Program-made: the position numbers and the translations under genes
IMG/VR virus record: IMGVR_UViG_3300042975_000100
Coordinates: 64,001-128,000 of that record
DNA from: a virus
Taxonomy: Duplodnaviria > Caudoviricetes
Strand: one strand, 5' to 3'
DNA length: 64,000 nt
The notes under the pieces: generated by a model
What the model was told of the DNA's origin: nothing
Seen by the model: the letters and a program-made list of their open reading frames with translations, nothing else
Databases searched by the model: none
Shown: one piece after another, positions 7,711 through 10,888 of the stretch
How positions within the stretch are numbered: the first letter of the stretch is position 1
Layout of the letters: each line of letters starts with the position of its first letter

Positions 7711-8058
7711 TTATATTTTGTTACGACCTTCTACATTACGTTTGGTTCTATCTGCTGTTCTAGCATCAAGAAATTTAATAGCGTTGTTAATAGAATTGAG
7801 AGCATCGCTATTATATGTACAAGCAAAGGGACTTTTCTGGAAATTCTCTAAGCGATATTTAACAATCTCTAAGAGATCCCTTTCAGATAACCCATTCTCT
7901 CCAACTTCTTTGATCGGACCCTGCTGAAAGTCTACATTGCCGATAGTCTGGTTCTCAGAACCCTTTACAACAAAGTGATGGTAGTTATTATATGCTTTAC
8001 TATCTTCATGCACAATGGTATGATTTCCGACGTTGTAATTCATTTTAATCTGTTCCAT
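7711..8058 (-). CDS. tad1: Tad1-family anti-Thoeris/anti-CBASS signal sponge
   Basis: YHHF...FQQGPIKEVGENG...DLLEIVKYRLENFQKSPFAC..N..AL...RTADR..RNVEGRN matches the Tad1 pattern FQxG...DLLEIVRDRLKSFQAGPF...RRVEDRIERNVLGTN. Confidence 0.85.
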   Translation of the reverse strand: MEQIKMNYNVGNHTIVHEDSKAYNNYHHFVVKGSENQTIGNVDFQQGPIKEVGENGLSERDLLEIVKYRLENFQKSPFACTYNSDALNSINNAIKFLDARTADRTKRNVEGRNKI

Positions 8059-8082: not shown

Positions 8083-8604
8083 TTAGGGTTTCATAGTCCC
8101 TTTAACCTGTCTTACTTCTCTATCTTTATTGCGCTTCTCTATTGATTTCAAAGCACCCTTGATATAGATCATCGCTTCATCCGTTTCTTTACAACGAAGA
8201 TTAGTCTTCTGGAATGCTTGCATCCTCAAAAGCACAGCAGACAACAGTTCTTCATTGGTTACCCCATTAACCTTATCAGATCCATGCTGAAAATTTATAG
8301 TCTGGATAACCTCTCCAGACTTTGCATCACAGATAACGAACTGACCGTCTTTGTCAGTCTTTATAACAGCCGTTACATCATCAGAATGAATAGATCTAAG
8401 CTCATCTATCATATCATTCTTCAGCTCTTTGATTTCAGCTTCGATGTCTGTATAGGATATAAGCTTCTTGCAATCATCGCAGATCGTAAGAAGAAAATCA
8501 TGATTCATATTGTCTTTATCGGTTACTGTGAACAAGATATCAAACGTATGCTTGTGTTTACATTTGTTGCTGTGTCTAAGCATAGCTATAATCTTATCTA
8601 TCAT
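8083..8604 (-). CDS. Second Tad1-family protein with N-terminal Cys/His (putative Zn-binding) extension
   Basis: C-terminal INFQHG..VNGVTNEELL...RMQAFQ...RNKDREVRQVKGT; N-terminal CKH...CDDC. Confidence 0.75.
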   Translation of the reverse strand: MIDKIIAMLRHSNKCKHKHTFDILFTVTDKDNMNHDFLLTICDDCKKLISYTDIEAEIKELKNDMIDELRSIHSDDVTAVIKTDKDGQFVICDAKSGEVIQTINFQHGSDKVNGVTNEELLSAVLLRMQAFQKTNLRCKETDEAMIYIKGALKSIEKRNKDREVRQVKGTMKP

Positions 8605-8701: not shown

Positions 8702-9658
8702 ATGAAAAAGAAAGAAGTTATGCATCTCGTTCCTGAAAAAAATGAGAAGCGCGAAGATAGTGGATTTGGATTTAATGCATCTTCATTGGTTGGAGATGGA
8801 GACGCTCTTCCTGCATTAGAAACCAATGAGCCGGCTAAAAAGAAGAGAGGCCGTCCACGTAAAGAAGATAATGGTGATGGATTCACTGTAGCTAAAAAAG
8901 CTGATCCGAATCCTATCAATTCTGATATGCCTTACGATCAAACGTATAAACAGAATATGATGATGATGTCTGGTACAGTTGCTCAGATCGATGGTCTGAG
9001 TTCACAACTTATGCAGGATCTTGGAGCTGTACGTAACTTACGTAATAGCTTTAAGAAGTATGAGTATATGGGAACAATCGCAGGAGCAGTTACTAGTCTT
9101 ATCGGTAATAAGATCAGCGCTGTGCGAGAGATGAACAGCGTTATCACAAAGTGCCATGACCTTGAGCTTAAGCGTGCTAAGGAGCTTAAAGCCGGAGTGG
9201 ATGACGGTGATGATGATAAGAGACTCATGGATCTCTACTCTGCATTTATCAACAATCCGATGGGTAACCCTGGAGCGAGCATGCCATATGCTAATGTATC
9301 TCAGGCTGATCTTATGTCTGTTGGTGCTAGAGCAAATACCACGAATCTGTTCTCACAGAATGAAGACCCGGGATTTACTCGCTATGAACAGAATCTTACC
9401 CCTCAGCAGAATGCAATGCTGAATGAGGGCAATCCGAACATTGAGACTGTTCTTGTATATGATCAGAGCACACAGGATAAGTATTTTGAGGTAATCGATA
9501 AGAGTACCGGAATGCCTATTCCTAATATGCCTACACCTGGAGAGTTTATCCTTGAAGGATGCGTGCCAGATGTAGTACGTGGCATTGCACGTAACTCAGA
9601 CTTCAATCAGAACTTCCCATTGAAGCTCGTTGGACAACGGGCAGCAAACGAGTATTAA
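8702..9658 (+). CDS. Hypothetical protein with AT-hook
   Basis: KKKRGRPRK AT-hook; GGGAGG RBS; AACA-N6-TA promoter at 8664-8675. Confidence 0.7.
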   Translation: MKKKEVMHLVPEKNEKREDSGFGFNASSLVGDGDALPALETNEPAKKKRGRPRKEDNGDGFTVAKKADPNPINSDMPYDQTYKQNMMMMSGTVAQIDGLSSQLMQDLGAVRNLRNSFKKYEYMGTIAGAVTSLIGNKISAVREMNSVITKCHDLELKRAKELKAGVDDGDDDKRLMDLYSAFINNPMGNPGASMPYANVSQADLMSVGARANTTNLFSQNEDPGFTRYEQNLTPQQNAMLNEGNPNIETVLVYDQSTQDKYFEVIDKSTGMPIPNMPTPGEFILEGCVPDVVRGIARNSDFNQNFPLKLVGQRAANEY

Positions 9659-9675
9659 TTAAAACACACAGTAAA

Positions 9676-9700
9676 GGAGAGAGCCAATGCGGCTCTCTCC
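9676..9700. terminator. Intrinsic terminator
   Basis: GGAGAGAGCC-AATGC-GGCTCTCTCC 10-bp stem. Confidence 0.75.
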
Positions 9701-9722
9701 AATATTGTGTTACGACAGAAAT

Positions 9723-9741
9723 AAAAACCGTTTACAACGGC
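9723..9741 (-). terminator. Small terminator-like hairpin ending the candidate ncRNA
   Basis: Minus strand GCCGTT-GTA-AACGGT followed by a T run. Confidence 0.5.
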
Positions 9742-9747
9742 ATTCAT

Positions 9748-10203
9748 AAATATTTATGCTGGTATGACTGCTTAGGGAAGAAACCCATGCTTGACTCACT
9801 GGCAAAAACCTTAATCTAAGATTTTATAATTGGATTGTGATGATTAACTTTTAAGATCTTAAGTCTACTGGATTAACAAAAAGTTTAACGGCTTAATAGC
9901 TTAATGATAATTGATTAAATCTTAATGATTATCTCTTCATCTTAATTTTAATCAGAACTGGGACTCGAACCCAGAGAGTGACATAGAGTATCTATGCCAT
10001 GCGTTTACCAATTCCGCCATCCTGCTTAAAGTATGTAGATTTTTGGATCATCTACAATGCTATCTTTGTTTGATAGTTTTGCTTTTTGTTTTTGATTCAA
10101 CTGATCAAAAGTTAAGCGATAGCTTTTGTTTTGTACGGTAAAAGCTATCGAAAGACCGCTGAGCCTTTTCTTGGATTTTTACATCATATCAGCAATGATA
10201 CTT
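9748..10203 (-). ncRNA. Candidate ~455-nt structured ncRNA downstream of the 227-aa gene
   Basis: Long-range closing stem (10184-10203 with 9748-9767), four local hairpins, tRNA-like module, UUAA-periodic tract, no ORF of 60 aa or more. Confidence 0.65.
9950..10026 (-). ncRNA. tRNA-like element with non-canonical anticodon arm, no encoded CCA
   Basis: AGCAGGA TG GCGGAATTGGTAAACGC A TGGCATAGA-TAC-TCTATGTCA CTCT CTGGG-TTCGAGT-CCCAG TTCTGAT: canonical D and T arms, 9-bp/3-nt-loop hairpin in place of the anticodon arm. Confidence 0.8.
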
Positions 10204-10204
10204 A

Positions 10205-10888
10205 TCAATATTCGATTTCAATCTCCGTGATCTCAGTCATATGACCAAGAGCAGCGTCAATGTTCACCAGATAGGTATCGATTGCCTCTGCGGCATTTTT
10301 CATCTTCTTAGTGATCTCAGCCGGATCAAGAAGATCTACCTTGTACTGTGCATTCAGCTCAGCCTCACGATTAGCGCGCTGAGTCGACGATGCATTCGTA
10401 GTATTGCCGAATTCGTTGTTAACACGCTCGACAATGTAACGATCAGTTTCTTTGACACGCTTGGTATACATCTTGGATACTGAACTAACGCCATTGGTGA
10501 TAGTACGCATGATGCTCGTAAGTTCATTCTTGTAGTAGTTCTTACGAGCGATAGCAGCAGCGAATGAAAGCGATTCTTTCTCATCGCCATTGATATCGTC
10601 GAACGACTTGAACTTCGGTACTTCGATGTACGTCTTTGCATTTGCATTGAGGATAGCATTTGCAATGGCTTCACGGCGAATGATCTTATCGTTCAGGGAC
10701 TGCCAACGAGCTTTAGCGTCAGCTTCCCAGTCTTCAACAGAGAGACCATTGATGATCTTCTCGGTATTGTCTTTTGTTGTGGTAAATGCTTTCATAGAAG
10801 CAGAATCAATCTGCTTATCGAGCATCTTCTTCTGCGCGAGCGCAGCTCTGAGTGTCATGGTTTCTTTTACCATTTTACATTCCTCCAA
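10205..10888 (-). CDS. Helical coiled-coil protein, DIP1984/DUF6847-like
   Basis: MTLRAALAQKKMLDKQI...NANAKT...LSFAAAIARK...IDAAL...TEIEI resembles the DIP1984-like pattern; GGAGG RBS; highly expressed codon bias. Confidence 0.6.
   Translation of the reverse strand: MEECKMVKETMTLRAALAQKKMLDKQIDSASMKAFTTTKDNTEKIINGLSVEDWEADAKARWQSLNDKIIRREAIANAILNANAKTYIEVPKFKSFDDINGDEKESLSFAAAIARKNYYKNELTSIMRTITNGVSSVSKMYTKRVKETDRYIVERVNNEFGNTTNASSTQRANREAELNAQYKVDLLDPAEITKKMKNAAEAIDTYLVNIDAALGHMTEITEIEIEY

Follow-up and report, generated by a model that had tools for sequence, protein, structure and literature searches.

Can a tRNA body that has lost the means of decoding be maintained for its shape, and if so, in what molecule does it act? 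This question was raised by a cloverleaf on the minus strand of a 64,000-nt stretch of phage DNA (referred to as the window), which corresponds to bases 64001-128000 of the 144,787-bp IMG/VR virus record IMGVR_UViG_3300042975_000100 (estimated to be 58% complete). The element, at 10026..9950, had been described in a first-pass annotation as an embedded tRNA mimic; it was found not to be autonomous, but one domain of a larger RNA. We conclude with high confidence that it is a non-decoding, tRNA-shaped domain in the variable region of a conserved, pseudoknotted phage RNA of approximately 440 nt, which is co-transcribed with, and is probably the partner of, an upstream gene for a protein of the DIP1984/DUF6847 fold.

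A tRNA-shaped domain within a conserved phage RNA

The element folded as a cloverleaf with its arms in normal order (Table 1). An intact D/T elbow, a perfect T arm, a 9-bp anticodon arm with a 3-nt loop lacking U33, and the absence of a long variable arm were all confirmed as first described, on the minus strand; U8, A26, and a 4-nt variable loop were also present. The sequence likewise agreed with the reported G-A mismatch in the acceptor stem, the absence of CCA, and the extension of the acceptor helix into the flanks, which consisted of four A-U pairs (UUUA/UAAA). Folded in isolation, the element retained the 9-bp hairpin as well as the extended acceptor in its minimum free energy (MFE) structure. 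The parts that build the L-shape (U8, A14, the GG of the D loop, the UUCGA of the T loop, a 12-bp acceptor/T stack, and the rod of the anticodon stem) were kept, while those required of a decoder were lost: a 5-bp stem with a 7-nt loop containing U33 and purine 37 was not found in any register of the anticodon arm, and the acceptor had neither a free end nor an encoded CCA, its flanks being paired. On the other hand, the D arm, previously assigned to the Leu/Tyr type, was not diagnostic, since the identical 18-nt string was found in an ordinary phage tRNA-His(GUG); a scan with the combined D-arm and T-arm pattern returned only an unrelated phage tRNA-His.

ARAGORN with default settings made no call; in relaxed modes, the call was either 'tRNA-???(agat)', undetermined and with an 'anticodon' of four bases, or tRNA-Ser interrupted by an 'intron' of 2 nt. 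The Rfam tRNA model (RF00005) scored 30.7 bits against a gathering score of 29 (E = 2e-4; lax filters, 601-nt search), and this match was missing from the default Rfam scan of the whole window.

The domain lies in a stretch of 480 nt free of long ORFs (open reading frames), which runs from the stop codon of the upstream gene to a terminator-like hairpin. The RNA begins approximately 10 nt past this stop codon, contains no long ORF, and gave an MFE z-score of -4.16 for the full fold. Between the gene and the RNA, the same strand showed no sigma-70-like promoter, and the hairpin at 9717..9741 is likely the 3' end of a gene-plus-RNA transcript.

The gene and the RNA were found together in approximately 80 phage and prophage loci, to which profile-based scans contributed 12 IMG/VR, 52 metagenome, and 4 genome loci (three Veillonella and one Gemella), and non-coding DNA of 420-770 nt followed the gene in every locus fetched. 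Twenty-six non-redundant representatives (the window and 25 others; 343-439 nt) were alignable from end to end with MAFFT. Three helices, P1, PX, and P2, were present in all of them with compensatory variants: P1 of 8-17 bp; PX, formed between an A-rich strand that closely follows P1 and a U-rich one that closely precedes the 3' strand of P2; and a 5-bp P2 flanked by conserved AAAUC and CWG, with a hairpin in between. Also common to the 26 was a central tract of approximately 13 short units with a UAAUC/UUAAG core, which aligned unit by unit. Approximately 13 paired versions of PX (e.g., AAAAACCU/AGGUUUUU, AAAAGCU/AGCUUUU, and UCAACUUUA/UAAAGUUGA) and eleven of P2 (e.g., CUUAG/CUAAG, CUCAG/CUGAG, CUUGG/CCAAG, CCUAC/GUAGG, and CCAUG/CAUGG) were counted by an anchored helix search, which involves a degree of selection, since the best helix is picked within fixed windows; when the columns of the MAFFT alignment were scanned automatically for covariation, P1 alone was recovered, because small gaps shift the other helices. 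The window RNA has all the features of the family: a position downstream of, and on the same strand as, a DIP1984/DUF6847-fold gene, P1, PX crossing P2 with AAAUC...CWG, and the repeat tract. No Rfam 15 family other than tRNA matched it, even at lax settings, GOLLD and ROOL included, and the other family members that were searched likewise gave no match to a large-RNA family of Rfam 15.

Within this architecture, the tRNA-shaped element fills the variable slot between the 5' hairpin domain and the repeat tract, which holds unrelated hairpins in most lineages. The last hairpin of the 5' domain (7 bp with a 9-nt loop) stands directly upstream of the element and shares alignment columns with the T arm of the permuted relatives described below.

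Thirteen homologues of the upstream protein (35-99% identity, 221-225 aa) were spread over many otherwise unrelated phage contigs. Because these align from M6 of the longest ORF and have the lengths stated, the true start is probably the ATG at 10873 (222 aa). An AF2 model of the protein (pLDDT 89.6) gave a Z score of 11.6 to the DIP1984 structure 3kdq in VIA-align, the next match (7.3) being helical background, and the ESM Atlas returned TM scores of 0.54-0.69 to a cluster partly annotated as DUF6847. Only VIA-align set 3kdq apart: Foldseek with the same model against the PDB yielded nothing at E <= 0.001, and sequence searches of Pfam, NCBIfam, and the PDB gave no hit above threshold. The 'tail fiber' label that PHROG attaches to the gene was not supported and is probably an annotation error spread via PHROG 1491; a homologue in Bacillus phage BCP8-2 is also annotated as 'tail fiber protein'. 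No paper on the function of the protein family or on the RNA was found in the literature.

In the BCP8-2 locus (L086, NC_027355.1:30283-35906), 42 nt separate the homologous gene from the last gene of the 15-tRNA array that precedes it. Past the homologous gene comes a 500-nt gap without annotation, in which UCAAAG-type repeats and a P2-like helix (AAAAUC-CACUG...AGUGG) were found. The repeat unit thus differs between protein lineages, the UCAAAG of this distant lineage being one example. Other cultured phages of the Bacillus cereus group also carry the homologous gene.

Compensatory changes and two arm orders among the relatives

The first-pass annotation had proposed that relatives be compared for compensatory changes, and these were found, at homologous elements in the same place. 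All four lineages nearest to the window by protein identity carry a tRNA-like domain. That of L003 (69% protein identity) is in normal order; the tRNA model gives it 42.5 bits, and ARAGORN at default settings takes it for 'tRNA-Phe(AAA)'. Its anticodon loop, UCAAACG, has C33 and C37. In the other three (L005/L013, L006/L007, and L014/L015; 36-52% identity), the domain is circularly permuted, in the order of T arm, 3' acceptor strand, a closing loop of 6-7 nt, 5' acceptor strand, D arm, and anticodon arm. The acceptor stems of these permuted forms are 7 bp long, and ACCA is found in two of the closing loops. They have an identical T arm, preceded by the same four bases, whereas no two of their acceptor stems are alike and each is paired. 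The earlier comparison with YrlA was apt in this respect, three relatives having the YrlA topology; L005 weakly matched the YrlA model (30.9 bits against a gathering score of 69) over the T arm, closed acceptor, and D arm. A pattern for the permuted arrangement retrieved only two adjacent ordinary tRNAs in an unrelated phage, and no further permuted members.

When the five lineages (the window copy, L003, L005, L006, and L014) were placed in cloverleaf order, 100 of the 105 stem cells were canonical, the exceptions being the habitual 13:22 position and the G2·A71 of the window. Double changes were seen at 17 of the 21 pairs. Between the window and L003 there were 12 double compensatory changes, with no broken pair in L003. 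A 97% variant of the window RNA (L085) differed at four sites of the domain (G6·U67 to A-U, G28-C42 to G·U, position 13, and R57), all of which preserved the structure, and the population variants in RNA-library contigs from wastewater fell at R57 and in the variable loop. These results agreed with the original view that the stems reflect selection rather than decay.

The same data bear on whether the domain is a relic, that is, a phage tRNA gene or tandem pair captured in the variable region, which lost its function and is drifting. Capture would be easy, since members of the family adjoin tRNA arrays; the permuted form resembles the 3' half of one tRNA joined to the 5' half of the next with ACCA between them, and GOLLD RNAs sometimes have tRNAs in a linker. 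Drift is nevertheless difficult to reconcile with the pairing of 100 of 105 stem cells in spite of changes at nearly every stem position, with a T arm and four preceding bases kept identical in three permuted lineages while the acceptor stems covary, or with four recent substitutions in L085 that are all neutral to structure. We regard a relic as quite improbable; tRNA capture probably explains the origin of the domain, not its maintenance.

The anticodon loops behaved differently from the stems. They differed in all five lineages, were non-canonical in three of these (the window included), and lacked U33 or R37 in L003 and L006, and decoding is thus not what is conserved. Just 3' of the permuted domain, a second hairpin resembling an anticodon arm was observed in L014 (UUGGA/UCCAA, 5 bp, with the loop UUGCUAA of the canonical Ser-GCU type) and in L006 (UGAGG/CCUCA, with the loop CUAGUAC).

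An unusual working tRNA, read for example with a 7-bp anticodon stem and the loop GAUACUC (anticodon UAC) or with a loop that reads four bases, which is released by RNase P and RNase Z, CCA-tailed, and charged, is hardly credible on this evidence. The Rfam score slightly above the gathering score, the 4-base anticodon or 2-nt intron offered by relaxed ARAGORN, and the default tRNA-Phe(AAA) call in the close relative L003 speak for it. On the other hand, neither the window, in any register, nor L003 has the nucleotides expected at positions 33 and 37, the anticodons differ among all lineages, three relatives are circularly permuted with a closed acceptor, and the element is embedded in a larger conserved RNA fold. 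The conserved features are the L-shaped core, the stack of a 7-bp acceptor and a 5-bp T stem, and the rod formed by the anticodon stem; free to vary are the anticodon loop and the end through which the tRNA body joins the rest of the RNA.

Table 1. Positions of the upstream gene, the structured RNA, and the parts of the tRNA-shaped domain in the window, listed from 5' to 3' on the minus strand where possible.
Feature	Position	Strand	Description
DIP1984/DUF6847-fold gene	10205..10888	-	longest ORF 227 aa, TTG start
Whole structured RNA, ~440 nt	10195..9757	-	P1 5' strand to P1 3' strand; no long ORF
P1 closing helix, 5' strand	10184..10195	-	pairs with 9767..9757; sequence varies by lineage, pairing kept
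PX pseudoknot helix, A-rich 5' strand	10172..10178	-	pairs with 9787..9781; crosses P2
5' domain, ~5 local hairpins	10034..10168	-	from local fold and alignment
tRNA-shaped domain	10026..9950	-	cloverleaf, normal order; intact D/T elbow
Acceptor stem	10026..10020 with 9957..9951	-	7 bp including G2·A71 and one G·U
D arm	10017..10001	-	3 bp and G13·A22; 9-nt loop with GG
Anticodon arm	9999..9979	-	9 bp and UAC triloop (MFE form), or 5 bp and 11-nt loop
T arm	9974..9958	-	perfect; loop UUCGAGU
Discriminator U	9950	-	followed by AAAA; CCA absent
Repeat tract, ~13 UUAA-core units (AUUAAG / UUAAUC / GUUAAAC), spacing ~7-14 nt	9949..9821	-	from motif positions
P2 helix, 5' strand, CUUAG	9816..9820	-	pairs with 9775..9771
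PX pseudoknot helix, U-rich 3' strand	9781..9787	-	partner of 10178..10172
P2 helix, 3' strand, CUAAG	9771..9775	-	followed by conserved CAG, then P1
P1 closing helix, 3' strand	9757..9767	-	partner of 10195..10184
Intrinsic-terminator-like hairpin (9741..9727) and U run	9717..9741	-	~15 nt past P1

Possible roles of the domain

A conserved L-shape with a free anticodon loop is the signature expected for recognition by enzymes that read the shape of tRNA, RNase P above all. We tentatively propose, at somewhat less than even probability, that the domain is a processing or recruitment handle for such host enzymes. The elbow and the 7-bp acceptor stem would make the RNA their substrate or ligand, with RNase P as the first candidate and RNase Z, the CCA-adding enzyme, TruB, and TrmA as further ones. 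In the window phage and L003, where the domain is joined to the remaining RNA through its acceptor ends, cuts at 10027/10026 and near 9950 would give 5' and 3' pieces that P1 and PX still connect. The same enzyme would act on the permuted relatives by opening the loop that closes the acceptor, as in Mycobacterium smegmatis YrlA. This RNA, whose 7-bp acceptor stem is closed by a loop, is an RNase P substrate both in vitro and in vivo; CCA is added after the cut, and both halves co-immunoprecipitate with Rsr. YrlAs with shorter acceptor stems are uncut by RNase P (Chen et al. 2014, PMC4201824).

Where the internal domain is missing, its role may be filled from just downstream, by a true tRNA or by a mimic that has no anticodon arm. 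In 12 of the 26 representatives, a genuine tRNA begins 7-91 nt past P1 on the same strand, the shortest distance (7 nt after the RNA) being found in L021/L053. At L008:4025-4084 (the same in L022), a 60-nt tRNA-like element (41.4 bits, Rfam tRNA) stands approximately 15 nt past the RNA's 3' end; acceptor, D, and T arms are present, with only 2 bp and 3 nt at the position of the anticodon arm. This appended mimic looks like a 3'-end processing signal of the mascRNA style. The RNase P/Z signal suggested in the first-pass annotation is the mechanism best supported, by analogy with M. smegmatis YrlA (PMC4201824) and by the tRNAs and mimic that adjoin the family, while its specific expectations (CCA addition, and RNA ends at 10026 and 9950) retain the standing of predictions.

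The RNA was covered by contigs from three wastewater metatranscriptome studies, in one of which coverage was confined to 9716-10132; these are assembled contigs of low depth, which show presence in RNA libraries, give no depth profile or true ends, and amount to a hint of expression. Two contigs from two studies begin at 10028 and 10030, near the predicted RNase P site, and 9942-10029 was covered by no contig in one run. The contig ends at 9941 lie exactly k-1 (30 nt) past a variant at 9911 and are thus assembly bubble ends; those at 10028 and 10030 may be of the same kind, and none of these observations was counted for or against processing. No joints or circular junctions were seen in the RNA-library contigs.

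Several observations weigh against a processing handle or against the evidence on which it is built. Some RNA-library contigs extend without a break over both predicted cut sites (9912-10132, 9863-10013, and 9758-9998). The G·A mismatch, the extension by four A-U pairs, and the absence of CCA make the window domain a poorer substrate for RNase P than a pre-tRNA, and cleavage of the window RNA is itself a prediction. In seven of the 26 representatives, neither the RNA itself nor the few hundred downstream nucleotides that were scanned contained a tRNA or mimic, and the RNA family can therefore do without a tRNA handle. The association with tRNA arrays may reflect only shared genomic 'islands', as with GOLLD and ROOL. 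In addition, the covariation table was built on arms fitted to a cloverleaf by the analyst, and if lineages swapped tRNAs by recombination, part of the 'compensation' may have been inherited rather than selected in place.

The domain may instead be a purely architectural module, a compact, nuclease-resistant L-shaped brick that involves no host tRNA enzyme, which we consider somewhat unlikely. Such a brick may serve to space or orient its two neighbors, the 5' hairpin domain and the repeat tract; alternatively, its elbow may dock to another segment of the same RNA, to a second RNA copy, or to the partner protein. The two topologies have only the elbow and rod-like arms in common, the anticodon arm of the window is a rigid 9-bp rod, and other members put unrelated hairpins in the same slot, all of which would suit such a module; ROOL and GOLLD, near tRNA islands, build RNA-only assemblies (bioRxiv 10.1101/2024.12.08.627333). 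Architecture alone leaves unexplained why the acceptor stem is held at exactly 7 bp in five lineages, why ACCA is retained in two closing loops, and why tRNAs, or a mimic that lacks the anticodon arm, are appended just outside the RNA in other members.

The anticodon and acceptor ends also bear on the earlier suggestion of a decoy for tRNA-targeting nucleases, in which the RNA shows a tRNA body that soaks up or triggers tRNA-recognizing defense or toxin enzymes of the host. The phage origin, the association of the family with phage tRNA islands, and the anticodon-arm-like hairpins with changing loops in relatives (the second hairpin of L014 with UUGCUAA, and the L005 loop CUAAAAA) are in its favor. 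The fit is poor in other respects: the anticodon loop of the window is sealed to 3 nt, leaving anticodon nucleases nothing to cut, and the loops are not conserved in relatives, those of L003 and L006 missing U33 or R37; furthermore, the acceptor is neither free nor CCA-tailed and would be no substrate for acceptor-targeting toxins unless processed first. A decoy therefore appears improbable.

On a broader reading, the domain may be the plug by which an undescribed, widespread phage ribonucleoprotein (RNP), consisting of the DIP1984-fold protein on the repeat tract of the ~440-nt RNA, connects to the tRNA machinery of the host. The task of this particle would then concern tRNAs, for example the maturation or protection of a phage tRNA island or the countering of tRNA-directed defense. 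Part of this proposal, which we offer as speculative and regard as unlikely, is that evolution joined a tRNA body to the RNA in three or more topologies: within it, in normal or in circularly permuted order, and at its 3' end.

Relationship to known tRNA-like RNAs, and genome setting

We know of only a few systems in which tRNA mimicry occurs within larger non-coding RNAs (ncRNAs): YrlA, tmRNA, mascRNA, and viral TLS elements. The present element is a further tRNA mimic embedded in a larger ncRNA, closest to YrlA, and the RNA-protein module to which it belongs is uncatalogued in Rfam 15.

YrlA (RF02553) similarly carries a tRNA-like module (conserved T and D arms and an acceptor-like stem) within a larger RNA with paired ends, is encoded beside a protein gene, and also occurs in phages; the order of T arm, closed acceptor, and D arm is shared by L005, L006, and L014. 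The window element differed in its normal order and open acceptor, and did not match RF02553 at E <= 10. The Ro60/TROVE domain (PF05731) was unmatched in the 144,787-bp record, of which the estimated completeness is ~58%, under conditions in which controls matched, the neighboring gene encoding a helical protein of the DIP1984 fold. The window-type RNA is also three to four times longer, with a pseudoknot and a repeat tract, and its relatives have a local anticodon hairpin where YrlA uses a stem toward the Ro-binding helix.

The tRNA-like structure mascRNA (RF01684), at the 3' end of MALAT1 and MEN-beta, is an RNase P/Z signal in a long ncRNA, with which the appended mimic of L008, lacking an anticodon arm, and the tRNA 7 nt past the RNA in L021/L053 may be compared. 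It is eukaryotic, however, and the window matched this model at the T arm only (14.6 bits against a gathering score of 42.5), its mimic being internal rather than 3'-terminal. GOLLD (RF01998) and ROOL (RF03087) likewise are pseudoknotted RNAs of large size and ornate structure, found at tRNA islands in phages and prophages; tRNAs occur in the linker of some GOLLD RNAs. Their models gave no match at E <= 10 in the window region or at E <= 1 in eight related loci, and the window-type RNA differs from them in being tied to a specific upstream protein gene and in carrying a tract of short repeats; to our knowledge, neither GOLLD nor ROOL has a known protein partner.

Two-piece tmRNAs and permuted tRNA genes resemble the relatives in the order of T arm, 3' acceptor strand, (A)CCA, short linker, and 5' acceptor strand, and weak matches to permuted-tmRNA and tmRNA models were obtained on L014 and L005. 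These scores were far below gathering, there was no tag reading frame, D and anticodon arms were present, and ARAGORN found no tmRNA; the window element, moreover, is not permuted. With canonical tRNA (RF00005) the window element has in common the four-arm cloverleaf, the conserved core nucleotides, and the score given above, and it differs in the sealed or oversized anticodon arm without U33, the lack of CCA, the paired flanks, and its place in a larger fold. New here are the occurrence, in a single clade, of a full and covarying cloverleaf in two orders, normal and circularly permuted, and its link to tRNAs and mimics appended elsewhere in the RNA family.

The family-B DNA polymerase of the record showed 31% identity to those of the jumbo Bacillus phages AR9 and PBS1, and the G+C content was approximately 39%. 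No canonical tRNA gene was found by ARAGORN with default settings in the window or in the whole 144,787-bp record, and the element at 9950..10026 contains the sole canonical T arm of the entire 145 kb. The record is thus an AR9-like jumbo-phage fragment without a canonical tRNA gene, though relatives of the RNA module usually occupy tRNA islands. Single-protein searches of IMG/VR with both flanking ORFs and with the polymerase did not find relatives, and blastn of the region against 50,697 phage records gave no match.

Beyond the RNA, a perfect, G+C-rich palindrome of 10-11 bp at 9676-9700, which would form a terminator-like hairpin on either strand, separates the RNA transcript (minus strand) from the converging ORF at 8702-9658 (plus strand). 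Two neighboring ORFs on the minus strand (7711-8058 and 8083-8604; 115 and 173 aa) each matched PHROG 2428 (unknown function) and are probably tandem paralogues. Among the related loci, L005 contains an RT-18 RNA (RF03021; 1592-1668, minus strand; 54.6 bits against a gathering score of 41.3) adjoining an RT-like ORF (502-1560; weak RVT_1), just upstream of the DIP1984-like gene and on the opposite strand. In L012 (5414-6160), an ORF for an HNH/NUMOD4 endonuclease splits the DNA polymerase III alpha gene, and behind this ORF comes a match resembling a group I intron, which at 33.4 bits fell short of its gathering score (50).

One RNA family in which a tRNA-like domain occurs in both arm orders, with covarying stems and a variable or sealed anticodon, is a natural experiment in which the L-shape and acceptor stem, not decoding, are selected. 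The protein fold of the associated gene has had only the label of a 'domain of unknown function', and the module is found in jumbo phages, in Veillonella-type prophages of approximately 60 kb, and in cultured Bacillus phages, usually at tRNA islands. The tRNA-like domain provides a testable lead, through RNase P cleavage, CCA addition, and tRNA-type modifications, to the function of this widespread orphan RNA-protein module.

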